The translations under genes and the position numbers were made by a program. The notes under the pieces are model-generated. The model was not told the DNA's origin. It saw only the letters and a list, made by a program, of their open reading frames with translations, and did no database searches. Positions 15,167 through 25,221 of a DNA stretch of 25,221 nt are shown here, piece after piece. The first letter of the stretch is position 1; every line of letters starts with the position of its first letter. The stretch comes from a bacterium (GTDB lineage: Bacteria > UBP7 > UBA6624 > JBBIMK01): the NCBI GenBank assembly GCA_037444445.1, contig JBBIMK010000029.1, positions 1 through 25,221 of the forward strand, written 5' to 3'.

Positions 15167-16579
15167 GTGTCTGAAAGGATGAATAGAATGGAAAAAATGA
15201 AGGAGGCGGAGAGCAGGATGCGGCTGGAGAGATTGTGGGAATCCACTCTGCGATATTTGTTGAGGAAGAAGAGCGACCCCATTTTACGCTCTTTTTTGCA
15301 GGAAGCCCGGTTGGAGCAGAGGGAGAATCGCTTCATCCTTCAGGTGCCCACTCAACTCATCCGGGATACTTTGAAAAATCGCTATCCTGGAGTGATTGAA
15401 GAAGCCTTGACGCATGTGTTGAAGGATTCTGGCGGAGATGAAGAGATTGGATGGGAAAAAAAGGAGGTGGTGCTGGAACTGGAGATTCACCGGGGACCCA
15501 CCGGGATGGTTGAACAGCCCGGGCTTTTCCCGAAGTCAAAAGGCGACTCTCGCCTCTACCCCGCCCTGAATCCCAACTTCACCTTTGAAACCTTCGTGGT
15601 GGGGAAGAACAATCATATGACCCACGCCGCTGCATTAGCCGTCTCCCAGAACCCCGGCTGTGTGTATAACCCTCTGTTTATCTACGGTGGTGTGGGGCTG
15701 GGAAAAACCCACCTGTTACATTCCATCGGGCATTACATCCTGGAGAATGCTCCCGCACTCCTGATTCAATACACCCCCTCCGAGGAATTTACCCATGCTT
15801 TCATCACTTCTCTTCAGGAGGGGAAAATGAAGGAATTTCGGCGGACTTTTCGCTCCTGCGATGTTCTCCTGATGGACGATGTCCAGTTCTTAGCCCGGAA
15901 GGTGGAAACTCAGGAGGCGCTGTTTCATATTTTTAATGCCCTGCACGACTCTAACCGTCAGATTGTGCTGACCAGCGACCGCTCACCACGAGAACTGTCC
16001 GACATTGAAGGACGCCTCGTCAGCCGATTCACCTCCGGGCTGATTACCGACATCCAGCCTCCGGATTATGAAACCCGCCTCGCTATCTTGAAGCGGAAGG
16101 CGGATTCCCTTTCTGCTCCCCTCACCGATGAGGTGGCTGAATTCCTATCAGAGCAGGATGTGGCAAACATCCGGGAACTGGAATCCATCCTCCACCGGGT
16201 TGTCTCTTTTTCCACCCTGGAACTGCTCCCTCTCAATCTGGATACCGCCCGGGAAGCCTTGAAGGGATTCTTTGAGAAGAAAGAGAAGCCCTGCACCTTT
16301 GAGAAGATACTCCAATTTGTGGCGGAGGATTTCGGGCTGTCGGAAGGGGATTTGCTGTCAAAGAAGCGGACGCAGGAAATCGTCCTCGCTCGCCAGATTA
16401 TCATCTATATCGCCCGCATCCTTACCCATCTTTCCCTCTCCGACATCGGTAGAAGGCTGGGCGGAAAAGACCATACCACCGTCCTTCACGCATTCTCCAG
16501 AATTTCTGCACTGATGAAAGAAGACCCTGCCCTGGAACGCCGTATCCTCACCCTGATCGACGAAATCAAATCCCAATAG
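15167..16579 (+). CDS. dnaA: chromosomal replication initiator protein DnaA
   Basis: It has Walker A GGVGLGKTHLLH, Walker B LLMDDVQFL, sensor TSDR, and the C-terminal DNA-binding helix GGKDHTTVLHA. The real start is probably an internal ATG (15179-15218). The ATG at 15218 follows the SD GAAGGAGG at 15199-15206. Confidence 0.95.
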   Translation: MSERMNRMEKMKEAESRMRLERLWESTLRYLLRKKSDPILRSFLQEARLEQRENRFILQVPTQLIRDTLKNRYPGVIEEALTHVLKDSGGDEEIGWEKKEVVLELEIHRGPTGMVEQPGLFPKSKGDSRLYPALNPNFTFETFVVGKNNHMTHAAALAVSQNPGCVYNPLFIYGGVGLGKTHLLHSIGHYILENAPALLIQYTPSEEFTHAFITSLQEGKMKEFRRTFRSCDVLLMDDVQFLARKVETQEALFHIFNALHDSNRQIVLTSDRSPRELSDIEGRLVSRFTSGLITDIQPPDYETRLAILKRKADSLSAPLTDEVAEFLSEQDVANIRELESILHRVVSFSTLELLPLNLDTAREALKGFFEKKEKPCTFEKILQFVAEDFGLSEGDLLSKKRTQEIVLARQIIIYIARILTHLSLSDIGRRLGGKDHTTVLHAFSRISALMKEDPALERRILTLIDEIKSQ

Positions 16580-16701
16580 CCTTCCTGCGGAATCAAGCCA
16601 CAGGAAAGTTCGCCTGAAGCCCGGGCAGAAGCAGAGTATCCCACGCCCATCAGGTAGTATCTGCCCCGAAGGGTGTAAAATGGAAGATGGGGGTGCGAGC
16701 A

Positions 16702-17358
16702 ATGAAATGGCATCGGCTGAAGGTAGCCCGGGGTATTCTGCTTTTCTCTCTCATCAGCGCCGGCGTTTCCCCACTACTGCCGGAAGATGTTCAATCTGCC
16801 CTGAATAAAAAAGTGAGCCTCCACTATCAGGAGGAGCCAGTGGGATACATTCTCAATGACATCAGCGCTCAAATTGGGGGAAAAGTTAGCCTCTCTACGG
16901 AGGTTTTTGAGGAAGTCGCTTCGGAAAAAATCACCCTCGTGTATTCGGATAAGGTGCCCGCCCATCAAACCTTCACTGCTCTGACGGCACTCTTCGGGCT
17001 GGAGTGGGAAGCCACTCAAGAAGCCTCCAGTGATAAAAAGAGTCTCATCCCGCTTATCCAGGTGTGGAAGAAGAAGGGAGTCCGTGTATCCTCCGAAGTC
17101 TTAAAGAAGGAATATGTGCTCAAGAGCGAGGGTCCCACGCCACTTCTGGATGTGGTGGTTCGGCTGGCGGACGATGTAGGCATCGGGGTGGCTTTCGCCC
17201 CTGGCGCCTACACCGCCTTCAAAGGCACCTATGTTACCCTCGCTATCCCCTCTACCCCGCTGGAGCAGTTACTCAAACTATTAGAGATTCGTGCGGGCAT
17301 CCGTGTAGCCCTTCTGCCCGTGGGCGACACCTACCTTCTTTATATTGACCGCCCGTAG
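16702..17358 (+). CDS. secreted hypothetical protein
   Basis: It has the signal-like N-terminus MKWHRLKVARGILLFSLISAGV and no motif I recognise. Its composition is like the core genome. Confidence 0.55.
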   Translation: MKWHRLKVARGILLFSLISAGVSPLLPEDVQSALNKKVSLHYQEEPVGYILNDISAQIGGKVSLSTEVFEEVASEKITLVYSDKVPAHQTFTALTALFGLEWEATQEASSDKKSLIPLIQVWKKKGVRVSSEVLKKEYVLKSEGPTPLLDVVVRLADDVGIGVAFAPGAYTAFKGTYVTLAIPSTPLEQLLKLLEIRAGIRVALLPVGDTYLLYIDRP

Positions 17359-17607: not shown

Positions 17608-17679
17608 ACACAGCATAAAAGGTTCGCCCCTTACAGCACTTCCCCCCATTTTTGCTTCGCAAATACTTCTTTTATGCTG
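17608..17679. repeat. Island-flanking repeat R1 (left copy), with 11-bp terminal inverted repeats
   Basis: acacagcataaaaggttcgcCccttacagcacttccccccatttttgcttcgcaaatacttcttttatgcTg matches 25146-25216 with 2 mismatches. CAGCATAAAAG at 17611-17621 is the reverse complement of CTTTTATGCTG at 17669-17679. Confidence 0.8.
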
Positions 17680-17725
17680 GAAAACGTTATATGAAATGGC
17701 GATTGAGAGAAAATGGGGGTGAAAT

Positions 17726-18189: not shown

Positions 18190-18390
18190 ATGCCAAAACG
18201 AATACCTACTGAAGAAGAAAAGAGAAAAGCTCTTGAAAGAGCAAAGCGCGAATTTCCTGGTAATAAGGTATTACAAGAACTTCATTACATTCGATATCTC
18301 CTTGAAATTGAGTGGAAAGATATGACAATTGAGGAAATTCAAGAAGAGATTCGTAAGGCAAAGCAAGAGCTGGGATTGACAGAAAAATGA
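18190..18390 (+). CDS. small charged protein, putative cognate partner (antitoxin-like) of the PIN protein
   Basis: It starts 2 nt after the PIN stop, behind the SD GAGGAGGTG. It is about 50% identical by eye to the paralog at 24904-25113 (EEEK..EFP..K.LQE.HY.RY.LE.EW..MT.EEI). Confidence 0.6.
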   Translation: MPKRIPTEEEKRKALERAKREFPGNKVLQELHYIRYLLEIEWKDMTIEEIQEEIRKAKQELGLTEK

Positions 18391-21300
18391 TACCCCCAGA
18401 AGTTCATCTTGCGCGCTTAAAAATTCATAAGGAAACAAAAGGAATGAGCGAGGAAGGAACTATGGCAAATAATAAAGTGGAAAAAATTAACACTGAAGAA
18501 ATAACAAAAGAAATTAAGCAGTGTGCTTCACAATCTGCAAACGAAGAAGAACTCAAAATTAAAGTTGAATATCTTCTACGGACACGTGTTCTTGATAGTT
18601 GGCAGATTCCTTGGGCTTCTTATGAACACAGAACCTTGGTATCCGGTGTGCGTAAAGATGCCCTGTATGGAACAGTAATAATTGAATATAAAGCTCCATG
18701 CAAACTTTCAGATAAAAATCAGTTTGAAAACTTTAAAGCAAAAGTAAAACAGTATATCGCAGAAGAAGCAAGAGACGAACGGTTTTATAATAGGTATTTT
18801 GGTGTCCTTCTTGATGGAGAAAAAATAGCATTTATCAGATTTAGAAAGGGAGAATGGGAAGAACCAGAAAAACCCCTTGATATAAATCGATACACAATTC
18901 TGAGGCTGTTAGAGGCTATAAGGGGTTTAACAAGAAAACCCGTTGATGCTGAGTTCTTATTACAAGACTTTGGTCCGAAGAGTACTATTAGTAAAGCCTG
19001 CATTATCTCTTTATATCAAGCATTAAGAAAATCTAAATCTCCACGCACCAAAATGCTTTTTGAAGACTGGCGCACTGTCTTTTCACAGATATGTGCATAT
19101 TCCACTGAGAAACTGAAAGGGCTTATTAAATACTATGAAATAGAAGAGGAAAGCCCTGATGTTGAAAAAATCTTGTTCTCCGTGCATACCTATTATACTC
19201 TGCTTATGAAACTTTTAACCTCGGAGATAGTTACTCTCTTTGCCGACAGTGTGATAGGCTCGTATCTGAAAAAGGTAGAGGAAGCATACTACCGAGGTTC
19301 TCATGAGATGCGTCAAGAATTAGGAGAGTTAGAAGAGGGAGGTCTATTCTATACCCTCGGCATAAAGAATTTCCTTGAGGCAGATTATTTCGCCTGGTAT
19401 CTGGATGATTGGAATGATGAAATAGCGCATTCAATCTCTGAAATTGTGAAAAAACTAATGGACTATGAACCGGCAACAGTTGAACTGAATCCTGAACGAG
19501 TTAAAGACCTTTTCAAAAGGCTTTACCAGAATCTCGTCCCAAGAGATGTGCGTCACAAATTGGGTGAATACTTTACTCCTGACTGGTTAGCAGATTTGCT
19601 TTTAGATGAGATAGAATATGATGGTGATCCGGAGAAGAGTGTTCTTGACCCTGCCTGTGGTTCAGGGACATTCCTTGTATTGGCAATTAAAAAAATTAAA
19701 GATTACGCAGAGAAACATTTTCTTGATAAAAGAGATATCCTTAAAAAGATAATTGAGAGAATAAAAGGCATTGATTTAAATCCACTTGCAGTTCTTGCTG
19801 CAAAAGCAAATTATCTAATTGCGTTATCTGATATGTTAAGATATAGACCAAAAGAAGGCATTGAGATTCCAGTTTATCTTGCTGATTCAATTTTTGTTGG
19901 AAGAAAAGAAGCAGGTCAGTCTGAACTTGAGGTTCAAAGGAGAATAGTATTTGATAAAAGCGCTCAAAAGGAATGGGAAGCATATATAACTACTAATGAA
20001 GGGCAATTCTGGATGCCTATGGAAGTAATTGATAAAGGAAGGCTTTCGAGTGTCCTTGATTTGATTAATGGATGTATAAGAAATAAGTATTCTGAAAATG
20101 AATTTGAAAAAAGGCTCAAAAATACTTTTCATTTTCGACCTTATGCGTATGGGGCACTTAAAAGACTTTATAAAAAGCTTATTGGTTTAGAGCGATATAA
20201 TAAAAACAAGATATGGACAAGATTGCTAAAAAATAGATTTGCACCTCTTTTTATTGGGAAATTTGACTTTGTAGTCGGAAATCCTCCCTGGATAAACTGG
20301 GAGAATTTACCAGAGTACCATAGGAACCAAACCAAACCTTTGTGGGATTATTACGGATTATTAGAAAAGACAAAGGGTAAGGGTTTAGGAAAAGTAAAAA
20401 GAGACCTGGCAATGCTTTTTGTTGCAAGATGTTTTGATAGATATGTAAAAGAGAATGGGATATTGAGTTTTCTTGTGCCCTGGACATTATTCAAAACACA
20501 GGCAGGCGCCGGATTTAGAAAGCTTCTATCAAAGGGGTTTACACACAGGTGGGGCAAAACTAAAGAAGTTCCAATTGAGACGATCAAAGTTCATGACCTT
20601 GTTCAACTTTATCCATTTGAAGGCGCCGTAAATAGAACAGCGCTGATTGCTATTAAAAAAGGGGAGACCAAGTTTCCAATTCCTTGTCAGATGTGGTCAA
20701 ATCCAAGAAAGGAAAATATTCCGATGGAAGAGGAACTTGAAAATGTAAGGAAGAGAACAAAACAGAATGAGATGATACTTACCCCAATTGTAGAAAAAGA
20801 CACAATGGCTCCATGGATGATAATATCAGAGAAAGCATATAAGGCGGTTAAAAAGGTTATAGGTGAATCGGAATATGAAGCATATGAAGGCGTTAATACC
20901 GCTTTGAATGGTGTTTACTGGCTTGAGATTTTAAGAAAGCACCCAGATGGTCTGCTCGTTAAGAATACGCAACTTGCCGGATATAAGAAAAAGGTAAAGG
21001 AGGTTACAGAGATTTTAGAGCCTGATTTGATTTATCCGCTTATCAGGGGAGAGGATGTAAAGAAGTGGCATGGAGAACCAAGCAGGTATATTTTAGTTCC
21101 TCATAACCCATCAACTGGCAAAGCAATTGATGAATCCGCAATTAAAATTAACTACCCAAAAACATACAAATTTCTTTTCGGCCTCAAAGAAGAACTCGCA
21201 AATCGTTCAATTCATAAATTGTGGGGTAAAAATAGTCCATTCTATGCAGTTTATGATATTGGAAATTATACCTTTGCACCTTACAAAGTTATGTGGAAAA

Positions 21301-22178
21301 GGATAGCGGGCGGTATTACTGGTAAAGCTGTTAGTTTTGCATCATGCGTAATAACAACTGTAAAAGATAAATTCTTTGAAGTAGAAAAACCCGTTATTCC
21401 AAATGATTCCTTAATTTTAATTCCTTTGAACAGCAAAGATGAGGCATTCTATATTTGTAGTGTTTTGAATTCATCACCAGTGCTATTTGCCATCGCATCT
21501 TATACTTATGAATTAAGAATGGAAACCCATATTACCAAGTATATTAATATCCCAAGATTTAAGTCACAAAAACCTTTATGTTCAGAAATTTCGCAATTAT
21601 CCATGCAAGCCCATGAACTTGCAAAAGAAGGTAAAACCGAAGAAATAAAAGAAATTGAGGAACAAATTGACCAGAAGGTTGCAGAACTTTATGGTATAAC
21701 CGATGAGGAACTCGCGGAGATTAAGAAGTGTTTACAGTTATTGAAAGAGGGCGAAGTTGAGACTGAAGAGGAAACGGAAGAAGAAGTTATTCCAGAAGCA
21801 CCAAAGGGGATAGGAATTACAGTCAATCCCCTTCTGATTTATGAGGATATAGCAGAACAAATCACTCTGGAAATTCAAAATAATTTTGACGACACGGTTG
21901 AAGAAATTAGTGTTGAAATTCTATTAACCGGCAATAAAATTGCAAAACAATCTCTTAATAGATTAAAATTTAAGAGTAAGTCCCTATTGAATTTTATCTT
22001 ACCTCCATTAAAGGGCGGTGAATACAAATTGAAAATGAATTTAACTTACAAGTTAAATGAAGAAAAACAAGTAATGCAGGTAGAGAAAAATCTGTTTGTG
22101 CAAAGGGAAAAAGCCAAAGAATCTCCAGGAAGCGGTTGGGATGAATCTTTTGAAAGATTTTTAGAGGAGGAAAAATGA
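18387..22178 (+). CDS. Type IIG/IIL-like fusion: N-terminal PD-ExK nuclease motif, gamma-class N6-adenine DNA methyltransferase, specificity region and a C-terminal extension
   Basis: The nuclease motif is D-x8-E-x-K, KDALYGTVIIEYK (GAT 18657, GAATATAAA 18684-18692). It also has LGEYFTPDWLADLL, motif I VLDPACGSGTFLV (about 19641-19680), motif IV FVVGNPPW (NPPW 20280-20291), and AELYGITDEELAEI near the end of the methyltransferase/specificity part. The start may be 18387 (ATGA overlap with the upstream gene), 18444 or 18462. Confidence 0.88.
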   Translation: MIPPEVHLARLKIHKETKGMSEEGTMANNKVEKINTEEITKEIKQCASQSANEEELKIKVEYLLRTRVLDSWQIPWASYEHRTLVSGVRKDALYGTVIIEYKAPCKLSDKNQFENFKAKVKQYIAEEARDERFYNRYFGVLLDGEKIAFIRFRKGEWEEPEKPLDINRYTILRLLEAIRGLTRKPVDAEFLLQDFGPKSTISKACIISLYQALRKSKSPRTKMLFEDWRTVFSQICAYSTEKLKGLIKYYEIEEESPDVEKILFSVHTYYTLLMKLLTSEIVTLFADSVIGSYLKKVEEAYYRGSHEMRQELGELEEGGLFYTLGIKNFLEADYFAWYLDDWNDEIAHSISEIVKKLMDYEPATVELNPERVKDLFKRLYQNLVPRDVRHKLGEYFTPDWLADLLLDEIEYDGDPEKSVLDPACGSGTFLVLAIKKIKDYAEKHFLDKRDILKKIIERIKGIDLNPLAVLAAKANYLIALSDMLRYRPKEGIEIPVYLADSIFVGRKEAGQSELEVQRRIVFDKSAQKEWEAYITTNEGQFWMPMEVIDKGRLSSVLDLINGCIRNKYSENEFEKRLKNTFHFRPYAYGALKRLYKKLIGLERYNKNKIWTRLLKNRFAPLFIGKFDFVVGNPPWINWENLPEYHRNQTKPLWDYYGLLEKTKGKGLGKVKRDLAMLFVARCFDRYVKENGILSFLVPWTLFKTQAGAGFRKLLSKGFTHRWGKTKEVPIETIKVHDLVQLYPFEGAVNRTALIAIKKGETKFPIPCQMWSNPRKENIPMEEELENVRKRTKQNEMILTPIVEKDTMAPWMIISEKAYKAVKKVIGESEYEAYEGVNTALNGVYWLEILRKHPDGLLVKNTQLAGYKKKVKEVTEILEPDLIYPLIRGEDVKKWHGEPSRYILVPHNPSTGKAIDESAIKINYPKTYKFLFGLKEELANRSIHKLWGKNSPFYAVYDIGNYTFAPYKVMWKRIAGGITGKAVSFASCVITTVKDKFFEVEKPVIPNDSLILIPLNSKDEAFYICSVLNSSPVLFAIASYTYELRMETHITKYINIPRFKSQKPLCSEISQLSMQAHELAKEGKTEEIKEIEEQIDQKVAELYGITDEELAEIKKCLQLLKEGEVETEEETEEEVIPEAPKGIGITVNPLLIYEDIAEQITLEIQNNFDDTVEEISVEILLTGNKIAKQSLNRLKFKSKSLLNFILPPLKGGEYKLKMNLTYKLNEEKQVMQVEKNLFVQREKAKESPGSGWDESFERFLEEEK
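18425..18501 (+). repeat. 77-bp perfect direct repeat R2 (left copy), carrying the SD and first codons of the methyltransferase gene
   Basis: tcataaggaaacaaaaggaatgagcgaggaaggaactatggcaaataataaagtggaaaaaattaacactgaagaaa is identical to 24764-24840. Confidence 0.95.
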
Positions 22179-22975
22179 CACAAGCACTTGCAATACCGTC
22201 ATTCCCTACCCTTATTATATTGCCTAAATATAGGGGGGATGCAGAACCCCTTGTTGTTGAAAGAAAAATAAGCAAGCAAATAGAAAACATAATCAATTCC
22301 TTGATTAAATCACGCAAACCCCTTGCAAAAAATATTCACAATTTGCTGCCACAGATATTTGATATCAGGTTCAAATTTATAAAATGGGCGATTGAAAAAA
22401 ATATTGATTTACAACTTATTTCAGAATCGGTTTTGAGTGAATTAGATAAGGTGGCCAGTCAATTAAAACAACCTGATGAAGTTGTTCTCTTTGAAAATGC
22501 AAAGTTCGCATTGAAAACCTTCGCTAAGGTTCTTAACTCTATTACCGCAGAGATTCCATCGTGGACAGAACAAATAAGAGAAGACCTTGAAAAGGGAATT
22601 ACTATTTCTTATGAGCAATTGAAATTTGCAATAGAGTTAGAGCCACTTCCTGAACCTGCAAAGTCAATTATCATAAGACTCATAGATGTCTCATTGTCCC
22701 TTGAATTTGCTTTAATCCTTTCCGCCTTATATATATTCAAAGAACTCAGACTTTCAAAGGCAAGAATAATTGAACTTTCAAAACTTCTAAGAGACTGGAC
22801 ACAAGAATATGGGGCAATGGCTATGAAATTACAACTTTGGAAATCTAAAATGAAGAAAGTCCCCCAGGAGTCTCTCCAATTAACGGCCGAGGAAATTGAA
22901 GAAGAACAAAAATTGGCAGATGCTGGTATATCTTATTATCTGAACCAGATTATTCAGGAAGAGGAAAATGAATAG
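22175..22975 (+). CDS. hypothetical helical protein with an acidic C-terminal tail
   Basis: It overlaps the stop of the upstream gene (ATGA) and overlaps the downstream MazF-like start by 8 nt. I recognise no motif. The C-terminus is ..AEEIEEEQKLADAGISYYLNQIIQEEENE. Confidence 0.7.
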   Translation: MTQALAIPSFPTLIILPKYRGDAEPLVVERKISKQIENIINSLIKSRKPLAKNIHNLLPQIFDIRFKFIKWAIEKNIDLQLISESVLSELDKVASQLKQPDEVVLFENAKFALKTFAKVLNSITAEIPSWTEQIREDLEKGITISYEQLKFAIELEPLPEPAKSIIIRLIDVSLSLEFALILSALYIFKELRLSKARIIELSKLLRDWTQEYGAMAMKLQLWKSKMKKVPQESLQLTAEEIEEEQKLADAGISYYLNQIIQEEENE

Positions 22976-23306
22976 TTATCAACCTGGCGATATAGTTGTA
23001 GTAGACTTGGGCGAAACCATCGGACATGAACAAGAAGGTAGAAGACCTGTGGTGGTCGTTTCTCAAATATTAATTGGAAATCTAATTGTAATTATTCCAT
23101 TAACAAGAAAAGAGAAGTCCTGGTGGACAGTAGTGCGGATTAAAGAAGGAGAGGGTGGAGTAAAGATGGATTCATTTGCGTTGTGTCACCAAATAAGGTC
23201 TATCTCCTTGAAACGAGTTATTGAAAAATGGAGTCGTATAGAATCGGATACTTTAGCCCGCATAAAAACAGTCCTTGCTAACATCTTTGAATGGAGCCCA
23301 CAATGA
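22968..23306 (+). CDS. mazF: MazF/PemK-family endoribonuclease toxin
   Basis: It contains PGDIVVVDLGETIGHEQEGRRPVVVVSQ, VIIPLT and DSFALCHQIRSISLKRV. These fit the PemK/MazF pattern (GDI..VD..P..G.EQ.G.RP..V.S ... PIT ... Q.R..S..R). Confidence 0.88.
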   Translation: MNSYQPGDIVVVDLGETIGHEQEGRRPVVVVSQILIGNLIVIIPLTRKEKSWWTVVRIKEGEGGVKMDSFALCHQIRSISLKRVIEKWSRIESDTLARIKTVLANIFEWSPQ

Positions 23307-24727
23307 ATCAAGATGAATTAAATGCAAAACTAAAATATTACTTTAGCGATTGCGTTGTTAATAAGAAACTCTCTGAAAGACAGGAAATAATTAGGATTCC
23401 AAGGTTTGTTTCTGAGAACCTTTTAACAAAAATTTCTGTTTATGAAAATGACAAAGAACTCTTTTCTGAAAAACTTGCCAAAATGATAGAGTTTATCACT
23501 AATCACTTTCCTGAACCAAGGGATAAAGATAAAATCCTGAATAAACTACTCGAAAAACAAGAATATGAAATTATAGACGAATTCCGGGTTGAAGTGGATA
23601 TAAAAAATGGCATCAAAAAGGCTCACATCCCTTCCCTGAACATCAGAAACGCAATGATCCTTGATTCCATAATTAATGAAAATGAAAATCTGCTTTCTAC
23701 TGGTATCTGGGGATTTGCAAAACTGAGATATACTGACCCAGTATGCGATGAAAATGAAAACCCTCTTACCGTTCCTGTTCTGATAGAAAGTTTTAAACCC
23801 TTTCAGGTTTCCAATATTGATATGAAAGATTTTATTACAAAGAGAGAGCATTTTACCCTTGATGAATGGATTGATGTAATCATTAATACCATAGGTTTGA
23901 ATCCAAGCATCTTTGATAAGGAGCAAAAGTTAATATTAATTTCCCGCTTCATTCCGCTCGTTGAAAACAATGTAAGTATGCTTGAATTTGGCCCTCGTGC
24001 AACAGGAAAAACATATTTTTACAGGAATATATCCTTTTATACCAGGATAATTTCAGGGGGTCATTTAAGCCCTGCGGTTCTGTTTTATAATATTGCCACA
24101 AAAACTGTAGGAGAAATAGGAATAAAAGATTGTATGGTATTTGATGAAATAGCCAAAATCAGATTCATAAATGCTGACGAAATGATGGGAAAACTGAAGG
24201 ATTACATGGAGAGTTCTCATTTTGAAAGAGGTCCTAAAAAAACAACCTCTACATGCTCAATGGTATTTATGGGGAATGTGGATGTTAAAGGATTTATTCC
24301 TGTGGAAGATTTTACTTATATATTACCAGAATTTATGAGAGACAGCGCTTTTGTGGATAGGATTAACGGTATAATACTAGGATGGAAGTTGCCAAAAATT
24401 AAGAAACCTGAAATCCATCTTTCTCAAAATTATGGATTTTCTTCTGACTATTTTTCTGAAATCCTTCACGAATTAAGAAAAATAGACTTCCAAACAGAAT
24501 TAAAAAGGATTGTGGATTTGGAAAATGTAACCATAAGGGACTATAAGAGCGTTTTTAAATTGTTAAGTGGCATGATGAAAATCTTATTTCCTCACAAAAA
24601 GTGGGAAGTGCCTGAGTTTGAGAGAATAATAACCTTTTGCATAGGATATCGCGAGATGGTCTGTGAATGGCTGCATAAAATGGCACCTGGGGAGTTTGAA
24701 AGGAAGAGAATTGTGTTTAAAGTATGA
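23303..24727 (+). CDS. BrxL-like AAA+ ATPase (short form, no room for a Lon-like C-terminal domain)
   Basis: It has Walker A FGPRATGKTYFY (23990-24013) and Walker B CMVFDEIA (GATGAA 24143-24148). The N-terminus LNAKLKYYFSDCVVNKKL and the core ..GPR.TGK..Y......ISGG......LF.N......G.....D...FDE.. resemble BrxL as I remember it. The ATG at 23303 overlaps the MazF stop (ATGA); an alternative ATG is at 23291. Confidence 0.7.
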   Translation: MNQDELNAKLKYYFSDCVVNKKLSERQEIIRIPRFVSENLLTKISVYENDKELFSEKLAKMIEFITNHFPEPRDKDKILNKLLEKQEYEIIDEFRVEVDIKNGIKKAHIPSLNIRNAMILDSIINENENLLSTGIWGFAKLRYTDPVCDENENPLTVPVLIESFKPFQVSNIDMKDFITKREHFTLDEWIDVIINTIGLNPSIFDKEQKLILISRFIPLVENNVSMLEFGPRATGKTYFYRNISFYTRIISGGHLSPAVLFYNIATKTVGEIGIKDCMVFDEIAKIRFINADEMMGKLKDYMESSHFERGPKKTTSTCSMVFMGNVDVKGFIPVEDFTYILPEFMRDSAFVDRINGIILGWKLPKIKKPEIHLSQNYGFSSDYFSEILHELRKIDFQTELKRIVDLENVTIRDYKSVFKLLSGMMKILFPHKKWEVPEFERIITFCIGYREMVCEWLHKMAPGEFERKRIVFKV

Positions 24728-24763: not shown

Positions 24764-24840
24764 TCATAAGGAAACAAAAGGAATGAGCGAGGAAGGAACT
24801 ATGGCAAATAATAAAGTGGAAAAAATTAACACTGAAGAAA
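24764..24840 (+). repeat. 77-bp perfect direct repeat R2 (right copy)
   Basis: It is identical to 18425-18501. It begins 37 nt after the BrxL-like stop. Confidence 0.95.
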
Positions 24841-24902
24841 AGTTACCAATTCCCACAATTTTGACACCTGAAAAATTTTTTGAATTCAAGGAGGAGGTGT
24901 AA
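24841..24902 (+). pseudogene. 3' remnant of a second PIN gene, fused in frame to the R2-encoded start (chimeric micro-ORF 24783-24902)
   Basis: KLPIPTILTPEKFFEFKEEV-stop parallels the C-terminus of the intact PIN protein, GLPIPQMVTPEDFFEEV-stop. The same SD/stop/start geometry follows (ggaggaggtgtaatATG). Confidence 0.7.
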
Positions 24903-24903
24903 T

Positions 24904-25113
24904 ATGCCCAGAAGAGAAGTTTCAGAGGAGGAAAAAGAAAAAATACGCAAACGTGTTGAGATAGAATTTCCTGAGGATAAGTGCTTGCAGGAAATTCACT
25001 ACTATAGATATATTTTAGAGTTAGAATGGGAAACTATGACGCCAGAGGAAATATTGATGGATATAAAAGAAGGCGCTCGCCGGGTGAAAGAGGGAATGAA
25101 AGAAGAACATTGA
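24904..25113 (+). CDS. paralog of the small PIN-partner protein
   Basis: MPRREVSEEEKEKIRKRVEIEFPEDKCLQEIHYYRYILELEWETMTPEEI.. aligns with the product of 18190-18390. The SD is AAGGAGGAGGTG. Confidence 0.7.
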   Translation: MPRREVSEEEKEKIRKRVEIEFPEDKCLQEIHYYRYILELEWETMTPEEILMDIKEGARRVKEGMKEEH

Positions 25114-25145: not shown

Positions 25146-25216
25146 ACACAGCATAAAAGGTTCGCTCCTTACAGCACTTCCCCCCATTTTTGCTTCGCAA
25201 ATACTTCTTTTATGCC
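25146..25216. repeat. Island-flanking repeat R1 (right copy)
   Basis: It matches 17608-17679 with 2 mismatches. The terminal inverted repeat is 10/11 here. The window ends 5 nt later. Confidence 0.8.
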
Positions 25217-25221
25217 GGGAA

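Follow-up and report, generated by a model that had tools for sequence, protein, structure and literature searches.

A putative two-gene defense pair of a type IIG restriction-modification enzyme and a short BrxL, with an embedded candidate toxin-antitoxin pair

Near its right end, contig JBBIMK010000029.1 (assembly GCA_037444445.1), from a bacterium of the UBP7 lineage, encodes a restriction-modification enzyme (gene 1), a 266-amino-acid protein (gene 2), a MazF toxin (gene 3) and a short BrxL ATPase of the type known from bacteriophage exclusion (BREX) systems (gene 4). The whole 25,221-nucleotide stretch that was analyzed is referred to here as the window. A sequence-only reading of the window had proposed that the four genes form a single hybrid module, and the question raised by this locus is whether they do, or whether more than one system is encoded in the same stretch. 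The comparisons presented below, in which all functional statements on genes 1-4 are computational, indicated that the four genes probably make up two nested units within one translationally coupled operon on an acquired island: gene 1 and gene 4, which would form a two-component restriction-modification system related to BREX, and genes 2 and 3, which would form an independent type II toxin-antitoxin pair inserted between them.

All four open reading frames (ORFs) lie on the plus strand, and direct reading of the sequence confirmed that they overlap at every junction, at the coordinates that had been given in the sequence-only reading. The motifs noted there (D-x8-E-x-K, LDPACGSGTF, NPPW, GPRATGKT and MVFDE) were also all found in their places. 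The genes and the directly read junctions are as follows.

18462..22178, plus strand: gene 1, type IIG restriction-modification enzyme, 1238 amino acids from the ATG at 18462
22175-22178, plus strand: gene 1/gene 2 junction, ATGA overlap
22175..22975, plus strand: gene 2, 266-amino-acid all-helical protein, candidate MazF antitoxin
22968-22975, plus strand: gene 2/gene 3 junction, ATGAATAG
22968..23306, plus strand: gene 3, MazF/PemK endoribonuclease toxin, 112 amino acids
23303-23306, plus strand: gene 3/gene 4 junction, ATGA overlap
23303..24727, plus strand: gene 4, short BrxL, 474 amino acids, with the BrxL N-terminal DNA-binding region and an MCM-like AAA+ ATPase

Gene 1 was predicted to have all the parts of a site-specific restriction-modification enzyme in one polypeptide: an N-terminal PD-(D/E)xK nuclease, a helical domain, a gamma-class N6-adenine methyltransferase, a target-recognition region and a C-terminal extension. 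It matched the PADLOC profile REase_MTase_IIG over its full length (1074 bits, profile positions 10-1098 of 1100), and Pfam matches to Eco57I, N6_Mtase and, weakly, MmeI_Mtase were also found. The catalytic motifs of the enzyme core are listed here.

18654..18692, plus strand: nuclease motif KDALYGTVIIEYK, D-x8-E-x-K
19644..19673, plus strand: methyltransferase motif I, LDPACGSGTF (S-adenosylmethionine binding)
20280..20291, plus strand: methyltransferase motif IV, NPPW (catalytic)

The D, E and K of the nuclease motif showed no variation in alignment A4. Of the 16 scorable BrxL-linked homologs, 15 had all three; the exception is the homolog in locus L028, which has E-x-E. The homolog in L026, which is disrupted by an insertion sequence (IS), could not be scored. 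Motif I and NPPW were kept in the aligned BrxL-linked homologs. In L026, from Nitrososphaerales, the type IIG gene (L026:3542-5485) appears to have been split by a transposase-like ORF, and the remaining C-terminus carries a tail of the type seen on DUF499 proteins.

In the public record gene 1 is a 1263-amino-acid form that begins at 18387, and a start there, overlapping the upstream 66-amino-acid gene by an ATGA (18387-18390, plus strand, read directly), had also been considered in the sequence-only reading. That start was rejected, because full-length homologs and the PADLOC profile begin at 18462 instead. The ATG at 18462 (MANNKVEK..., with GAGGAAGGA upstream) is most likely the true start, which makes translational coupling to the 66-amino-acid gene unlikely.

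An AlphaFold2 model of gene 1 was obtained for 1200 residues, with a predicted local distance difference test score (pLDDT) of 79.6, and the numbering of this model is used below for the extension. The model shows an N-terminal alpha/beta domain, and its best fold match in the PDB was BrxX/PglX (9EWZ, E 2.9e-18), followed by CamA, the type IIL enzyme DrdV and type ISP enzymes (LlaGI). The NCBIfam PglX models scored only 23-57 bits on gene 1 against cut-offs of 400-900. Gene 1 had been described as MmeI-like, a label that fits it only loosely: among the MmeI-specific Pfam families MmeI_Mtase alone matched, at 28.7 bits (cut-off 27), and MmeI_N, MmeI_hel, MmeI_TRD and MmeI_C were not reported. 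The top 50 fold matches included DrdV but no MmeI chain. Without the MmeI-specific domains, gene 1 falls outside the MmeI family.

Gene 4 was recognized as a BrxL, as had been suspected, by TIGR02688 (491 bits, cut-off 329) and by the Pfam families BrxL_N and BrxL_ATPase. It can be aligned with Acinetobacter BrxL (8EMC, E 2e-74) over residues 4-463 of the latter, and the alignment ends just before the Lon-like C-terminal domain, which gene 4 does not have. The start at 23303 agrees with homologs, which begin MNQDEL, and with the 474-amino-acid form in the public record. Both the Walker A motif (GPRATGKT, from 23990) and the Walker B motif (MVFDE, from 24134) are intact, and gene 4 is predicted to have the parts of an ATP-driven, DNA-encircling BrxL ring. 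A short BrxL without the C-terminal domain is the form reported for type 4 BREX (PMC12839542). A scan of viral contigs for the short BrxL found no relative.

Homologs of gene 1 (40-72% identical) were found directly upstream of a short BrxL, often with 1-15 nucleotides between them, in Nitrosocaldus, Bathyarchaeia, Aenigmatarchaeota, Methanophagales, Thermoplasmata, Pyrobaculum oguniense TE7, Thermotogaceae and others. The pair is mostly archaeal, with a few bacterial genomes. At least 22 of the 80 GTDB loci found via BrxL contained a gene 1 homolog, and 19 of the 80 metagenome loci found via gene 1 contained BrxL; the sampled loci are mutually related and were found through the gene 1 and BrxL proteins themselves. 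In most loci with both genes the two are directly adjacent. The gene 1 family also has many stand-alone members without BrxL, and the type IIG family as a whole numbers ~2900 relatives. A survey of BREX diversity published in 2026 restricts BrxL to types 1 and 4 of BREX (PMC12839542). No description of a type IIG enzyme with BrxL was found among 7.7 million open papers or in bioRxiv, with the subscription-only literature and REBASE notes lying outside the search, which agrees with the earlier statement that no described system was recognized. Gene 1 and gene 4 apparently constitute a conserved, undescribed two-gene defense pair.

The end of the window 494 nucleotides past gene 4 would also fit a fragment of a canonical BREX locus, with PglZ and BrxC located just past the right end of the contig. 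This was rejected, and is regarded as barely conceivable, because no PglZ or BrxC was found in the homologous loci. None was present in any gene 1 + BrxL locus examined, including homologous loci with 6-11 kb of flanking sequence on both sides, and none of PglZ, BrxC, BrxA and BrxB was found in the window; the absence of PglZ and BrxC from the window had already been pointed out. In canonical BREX, PglZ is located upstream of BrxL, whereas here a type IIG enzyme and a toxin-antitoxin pair are upstream. What comes after gene 4 is a repeat, then the remnant of a PIN gene and one small gene. PglX also has no nuclease domain, unlike gene 1.

The distribution of BrxL was linked to the C-terminal extension of gene 1, which has three parts.

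21753..21806, plus strand: acidic disordered linker (EGEVETEEETEEE...), pLDDT 27-44 at model residues 1060-1077
21810..22103, plus strand: immunoglobulin-like (Ig-like)/CARDB-like beta-sandwich of 8 strands, model residues 1079-1176, pLDDT ~80-86
22137..22172, plus strand: C-terminal tail helix WDESFERFLEEE, model residues 1188-1199

The linker, which is also seen in the alignment, joins the enzyme core to the extension, and the tail helix is preceded by a basic disordered stretch. The beta-sandwich had fold matches to macroglobulin MG domains and to CARDB 3IDU, and some gene 1 homologs carry a precomputed PF07705 CARDB match. Among the 75 loci that could be assessed after duplicates were removed, BrxL was located downstream in all of the 41 with an extension of at least 100 amino acids (41/41), versus one of the 32 with an extension of 25 amino acids or less (1/32). 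The association had a Fisher p of 8e-20, a value that overstates independence because the sampled loci are related. The single exception, L173/L174, has BrxL without the beta-sandwich but with a tail-like ending (...LPKLEDVVND). Two relatives with neither extension nor tail, P0334 and P0285, were predicted beforehand to be without BrxL, and both predictions were borne out: P0334 is followed by a GmrSD-like gene and P0285 by unrelated genes. Identity to gene 1 reached 61% in relatives without the extension and fell to ~36% in relatives with it. This indicates that the extension is not simply a mark of clade membership, and that extension and BrxL were gained or lost together more than once.

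These data also bear on whether gene 1 is simply a type IIG enzyme that stands alone and happens to lie beside an orphan BrxL or a remnant of a degraded BREX locus. Type IIG enzymes are known to work as single polypeptides, BrxL is often missing next to close relatives of gene 1, and defense genes cluster in islands, all of which would be expected of chance neighbors. However, dozens of loci from different archaeal phyla and some bacteria have the two genes side by side on the same strand, the ATPase motifs of BrxL are intact, and there are no BREX remnants nearby. Fortuitous neighbors, an outcome that the sequence-only reading had itself put forward as telling against its proposal, are contradicted by the counts of 41/41 versus 1/32, and this explanation is considered very improbable.

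In the archaeal BREX loci L035, L043 and L079, where PglZ precedes short BrxL, a profile of the extension matched the very C-terminal end of PglZ, and hhalign aligned the extension with PglZ C-termini through to the last residues (79% probability, E 1.6e-5). When the PDB was searched with the sequence of a type 1 PglZ, the C-terminus remained unaligned, and the result was not used for the tail. The C-terminus of PglZ has been described as a fast-evolving Ig-like beta-sandwich that is replaced by a winged helix-turn-helix in type 2 BREX and is missing from type 3, and types 2 and 3 are the types without BrxL (PMC12839542). The distribution of the extension suggests coupling to BrxL rather than the sensing of invaders.

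The last residues of gene 1 follow a pattern that is found on other proteins as well: a basic stretch, then [S/T]-[W/L/F]-[D/E]-x-x-[L/I/F]. It recurs on type IIG enzymes, PglZ, DUF499 proteins, a family of 1070-1100 amino acids and a family of 230-415 amino acids, all of them encoded just upstream of a short BrxL. Examples are ...RRSWDRLLPS, ...KRTLEDLVKAF, ...KRSVDEILDSFI and ...SLLDDELEELLG, and the tail of gene 1 in the window is ...SGWDESFERFLEEEK. A tail model was trained on type IIG tails alone and was applied to the non-IIG proteins upstream of BrxL, whose C-termini scored far above those of 525 other ORFs from the same loci (Mann-Whitney p 6e-15); a regular expression for the tail matched 21 of 40 upstream proteins and 20 of 525 other ORFs. 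In the BrxL tree the class of tail tracked the BrxL clade and not the family of the partner: in L026 and L028 the type IIG enzymes have DUF499-type tails (RRTLEGLIRKLK, RRALEGLVKKFK), and the BrxLs of these loci group with DUF499-linked BrxLs. The possibility that the tail is a by-product of the brxL ribosome-binding site was rejected, since tails are kept where genes intervene, including in the window.

The tail, usually presented on the beta-sandwich, may be a docking signal for BrxL, for which the chance is put at a little less than even. Alternatively, extension and tail could serve gene 1 itself, through oligomerization, DNA contact or invader sensing, with BrxL cooperating without docking, for example via DNA. 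Ig-like domains are versatile, and the authors of PMC12839542 propose invader sensing for the PglZ beta-sandwich, both of which would suit such a role. A role confined to gene 1 is nevertheless judged decidedly unlikely, given that the tail is common to at least five unrelated partner families whose sole shared feature is a downstream BrxL, that its class follows the BrxL clade, and that L173 retains the tail and BrxL without the beta-sandwich.

Taken further, gene 1 and gene 4 could be a minimal two-protein relative of BREX, in which the PglZ-type module of a nuclease-active, PglX-like enzyme recruits BrxL and the same tail serves as a general docking signal; this is offered as a tentative reading that has somewhat the lesser share of the odds. 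Several observations weigh against the interpretation of the pair given here. The co-occurrence statistics count related loci, and the sequence past the 494 nucleotides to the right of gene 4 lies beyond the window. The match of the extension to PglZ is moderate (79% in hhalign; E 5e-4 to 1e-2 with a hidden Markov model in a small database), and six PglZ sequences underlie it. Ig-like domains are frequent additions and evolve fast, and invader sensing is the published proposal for that of PglZ. The tail helix was modeled at a pLDDT of ~31-33, as expected for a tethered peptide and uninformative by itself. Contact between gene 1 and BrxL, and any phenotype of the pair, are computational proposals. 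Finally, in one locus that has no gene 1, gene 2 and MazF are retained next to a decayed BrxL (L001, described below), and MazF overlaps the start of brxL in all three relatives, so that a functional link between MazF and BrxL is possible in this lineage.

The remaining two genes of the operon have a different distribution. Gene 3 had been called a clear MazF/PemK toxin, and this was upheld by PF02452 (5.7e-22) and by matches to 23 MazF/Kid/EndoA chains in the PDB; its RRP and PLT positions align with what we take to be the catalytic Arg and Thr of MazF. Gene 2, for which no recognizable motif had been reported, had no match in Pfam, PADLOC or NCBIfam, a PDB sequence profile search gave nothing, and Foldseek of a confident model (AlphaFold2 pLDDT 88.7) returned no match below E 0.28. 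The model is all-helical, with an acidic C-terminal helix (238-265) behind a flexible linker. No AbrB/SpoVT, ribbon-helix-helix or MazE domain and no DNA-binding fold was detected in gene 2, in line with the earlier remark that the usual MazE partner is missing.

Only three close relatives of gene 2 were found among 5.8 billion clusters, and a profile search retrieved 187 remote relatives of ~250 amino acids. Homologs are located directly upstream of MazF (L001, L003, L170/L171) or of a PIN toxin (L002), and in L002 the C-terminal 40 residues differ and the rest is conserved. One remote relative with readable context is located immediately upstream of the gene for a PemK toxin, next to remnants of IS21 and of an integrase, and no restriction-modification enzyme or BrxL was found near it. 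Because the C-terminus of gene 2 changes with the toxin, the protein behaves like a member of an antitoxin family with an exchangeable toxin-binding tail, and it is probably the antitoxin of MazF, a long replacement for MazE.

Gene 2 and MazF were present in only two of the ~60 gene 1 + BrxL loci, the window and L003, where gene 1, an extra 457-amino-acid gene, gene 2, MazF and BrxL occur in order. The toxin-antitoxin insert is independent and rare. In the WOR-3 contig L001, recX and alaS flank a set made up of gene 2, MazF and BrxL, without gene 1. The BrxL gene of this locus (L001:11114-12144) has an internal deletion of ~135 codons that includes Walker A, and gene 2 and MazF are intact, so the toxin-antitoxin pair seems to have outlived the defense system that accompanied it. 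The hybrid module proposed in the sequence-only reading was therefore borne out for gene 1 and BrxL, a combination that recurs, but not for the set of four, which was found in the window and L003 alone.

Inserts between the type IIG gene and brxL were found in 13 of ~44 loci that have both genes.

L011, L016, L028, L095: PIN proteins
L011:5776-9912: methyltransferase and BrxC/D-like ATPase (with PIN)
L015:1114-2317: DUF6978 and DUF1828
L017:4096-4620: RNase H-like exonuclease
L020: DUF6084
L026:6908-9409: SMC-like ABC ATPase
L029:335-2461: Argonaute (Piwi and PAZ)
L095:3019-5666: GmrSD-type enzyme/HNH and PIN
Window, L003: gene 2 and MazF

This junction looks like a recurrent landing site for defense cargo, with the MazF pair as one of many alternative passengers to judge from the sampled loci. 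BREX loci are likewise known to harbor embedded extraneous genes (PMC12707154).

A single obligate composite of all four genes, in which restriction acts first and MazF-mediated abortive infection is triggered via gene 2 and/or BrxL, has to be weighed against this. The overlaps at all junctions suggest co-translation, L003 has the same four genes in the same order with one extra, and L001 retains gene 2, MazF and BrxL together. RNase toxins are over-represented among the junction inserts (PIN four times, MazF twice), and RNases embedded in BREX loci as auxiliary genes have been proposed as back-up effectors (PMC12839542). The rarity of gene 2 and MazF among gene 1 + BrxL loci argues against an obligate composite, however, and the three loci that combine gene 2, MazF and BrxL represent one close lineage, with BrxLs 88-89% identical. 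Gene 2-like proteins and MazF also stand alone beside IS elements, a gene 2 homolog with a different C-terminus pairs with PIN, and the decayed BrxL next to an intact toxin-antitoxin pair in L001 fits a selfish addiction module. The four-gene composite is considered unlikely.

If the locus does comprise two nested units, they could operate as follows. Gene 1 would mark host sites by N6-methyladenine on one strand of an asymmetric site and would cut unmodified DNA. On incoming DNA it would recognize unmarked sites, where its tethered module would recruit the BrxL ring. BrxL might then load on or clamp the foreign DNA and block its replication, a role that has been discussed for BREX, or it might move or hold the DNA so that sites are brought together for productive cutting by the nuclease. 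In the second unit, occupying the cargo slot between the two core genes, the C-terminal helix of gene 2 would neutralize MazF, and a collapse of operon expression during infection, or loss of the locus, would free the toxin. The pair would stabilize the locus and, we infer, might provide an abortive-infection back-up.

The four genes are located on a low-GC island for which horizontal acquisition is the best explanation. GC content falls from 52%, the value of the surrounding chromosome, to 36% at ~17.4 kb, ~1 kb past dnaA (15167-16579). Two sets of repeats and two copies of a PIN cassette were found around the module.

18425-18501: D1 left copy, perfect 77-nucleotide direct repeat
24764-24840: D1 right copy, 36 nucleotides past the gene 4 stop
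17608-17683: D2 left copy, 76-nucleotide repeat at the left edge of the low-GC island, ~40 nucleotides upstream of the PIN gene
25146-25221: D2 right copy, 96% identical, running into the contig end
17726-18187, plus strand: PIN-domain gene of the flanking cassette (PF01850 PIN, 1.1e-6)
18190-18390, plus strand: 66-amino-acid gene of the flanking cassette, directly upstream of the long form of gene 1
24841-25113: paralogous truncated copy of the PIN cassette, 65% at the nucleotide level

The D1 pair brackets the four-gene module, with a repeat unit length of 6339 nucleotides. In the left copy lie the ribosome-binding site of gene 1 and its first 13 codons, and the right copy is joined in frame to the final 20 codons of the second PIN gene (24841-24902), which creates a 33-amino-acid ORF (MANNKVEKINTEE-KLPIPTILTPEKFFEFKEEV). 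D1 could have arisen by site-specific or homologous integration of a 6339-bp circle, by deletion between tandem modules, or as a loop in the assembly graph. There is no recombinase inside the D1-bracketed module, and a search of the window for an integrase was negative; the 10 ORFs of 1-15.2 kb scanned against Pfam were ordinary chromosomal genes.

The D2 copies sit at both edges of the low-GC island. D2 is a conserved noncoding element of ~90 nucleotides, with the core CATAAAAGGTTCG ... CTTCTTTTATGC and an 11-nucleotide inverted repeat. It was also found just 3' of BrxL in L015 (3824-3920), a metagenome-assembled genome labeled Nitrosotalea, and in one viral contig (L172:3908-3970). In the 3 copies with downstream sequence in hand, D2 is located 40-90 nucleotides upstream of an ORF start. 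It folded no better than shuffled sequence (z = -1.3) and had no Rfam match. In an Rfam scan of 16.5-25.2 kb the only match was a weak one to a snoRNA, at chance level, and promoter and terminator scans were at background level.

The PIN cassettes flank the module on both sides and have a toxin-first order, which is unusual. In the second cassette PIN is reduced to its last 20 codons, followed by a 69-amino-acid gene that is paralogous to the gene at 18190-18390. The small cassette proteins of 66-69 amino acids had no family match. The immediate left neighbor of the island is dnaA (window 15167-17358, with the ORF that follows it); this following ORF (16687-17358) encodes a protein of 223 amino acids whose N-terminal part has a hydrophobic segment and which matched no family.

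Partners of short BrxL other than type IIG enzymes were also seen, among them DUF499 proteins. Eleven crenarchaeal loci (L040, L041, L045, L048, L053-L055, L060, L069, L073 and L076) share one block, at ~6.7-12.7 kb of each locus, which encodes a ~1000-amino-acid methyltransferase, a ~1085-amino-acid protein, a short BrxL, a 271-amino-acid protein and a 172-amino-acid protein. The ~1085-amino-acid protein has no Pfam match and ends in ...RRSWDRLLPS, and the block may be another undescribed BrxL-containing system. In L021:6532-11413, L044:6600-11431 and L081:3774-8554, DUF499 proteins of 1122-1149 amino acids with ...KRTLEDLVKAF-type tails directly precede the short BrxL, and these archaeal loci also encode a ~1000-amino-acid methyltransferase. 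A TIGR02688-type BrxL from a cultured bacterium was found on the Thermus thermophilus plasmid pTthSNM3-3b (L177, NZ_AP025610.1 18605-37864), where it lies between two hypothetical proteins, of 262 and 689 amino acids, and a group made up of a helicase-related protein, a NYN-domain protein and a 1338-amino-acid N-6 DNA methylase. PglZ is not annotated in this locus, another non-canonical context for BrxL.

Compared with known systems, the gene 1 + gene 4 pair would function as a hybrid of BREX and a type IIG restriction-modification enzyme. With BREX types 1 and 4 it shares a true BrxL, in the short form of type 4, and as in BREX the protein that precedes BrxL ends in an Ig-like beta-sandwich (in PglZ there, in gene 1 here), PglX/BrxX is the closest structural match to gene 1, and the locus tolerates embedded accessory defense genes. 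In contrast to BREX, it has two core genes instead of six and does not have PglZ, BrxC, BrxA or BrxB, the components by which BREX is defined; since PglZ and BrxC were tested for and not found, the system is not a member of BREX. BrxL is here partnered with a type IIG enzyme and not with PglZ and BrxC. The PglX-like gene 1 also carries a conserved PD-(D/E)xK nuclease, so restriction is probably by cleavage, unlike the cleavage-independent exclusion of BREX.

Like the type IIG and IIL enzymes of the MmeI, DrdV and Eco57I class, gene 1 combines a PD-ExK nuclease, a gamma-class methyltransferase and a target-recognition region in one chain; the full-length PADLOC type IIG match, DrdV among the fold matches and the many stand-alone relatives point the same way. 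It differs from them in its additional linker, beta-sandwich and tail and in an AAA+ partner that co-occurs obligatorily, and to our knowledge described type IIG enzymes need no ATPase. Genes 2 and 3 resemble MazEF in having a MazF-fold toxin with aligned catalytic positions and an overlapping upstream gene whose product ends in an acidic helix behind a flexible linker. The product of that upstream gene has 266 amino acids, however, in comparison with ~80 for MazE, its family of ~190 also pairs with PIN, and without a MazE-type antitoxin genes 2-3 are not a canonical MazEF.

RNase genes inside defense operons have precedents. The type I restriction-modification system EcoprrI harbors the embedded anticodon nuclease PrrC, and BREX loci have accessories such as BrxU/GmrSD and PARIS; in these, as in the window, an RNase or defense gene inside the operon could provide a second line. 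Unlike PrrC, the RNase here brings its own antitoxin, and the insert varies between loci. The DUF499-centered BR systems are another restriction-modification-like family that is tied to BREX by shared parts (Rakesh and Krishnan 2026), and the archaeal DUF499 loci described above resemble the window in that DUF499 and a methyltransferase precede a short BrxL, with a related tail. The core ATPase and methyltransferase of the BR systems are different, there is no DUF499 protein in the window, and the published BR systems were described with Swi2/Snf2 helicases and not with BrxL (Rakesh and Krishnan 2026).

How BREX stops phage, and the role of BrxL in doing so, are still unresolved according to papers from 2025 and 2026, and BREX is hard to dissect because six proteins are needed. 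A natural two-protein system would be a simpler experimental handle, in which methylation and cleavage by gene 1 are easy to assay. The beta-sandwich and tail provide a testable hypothesis of BrxL recruitment that is applicable to canonical BREX, because the module is shared with PglZ, because BrxL follows the extension in 41/41 versus 1/32 loci, and because the class of tail tracks the BrxL clade. If tail docking is correct, it would account for BrxL recruitment in BREX as well. Gene 2 defines a family of ~190 long, all-helical candidate antitoxins without a known fold relative, and the embedded MazF pair, if the proposal holds, would be an exchangeable abortive-infection back-up. Short BrxL appears to be a promiscuous module with several undescribed archaeal partners, and there would then be several new BrxL-dependent defense systems, mainly archaeal, that include at least two uncharacterized partner families.

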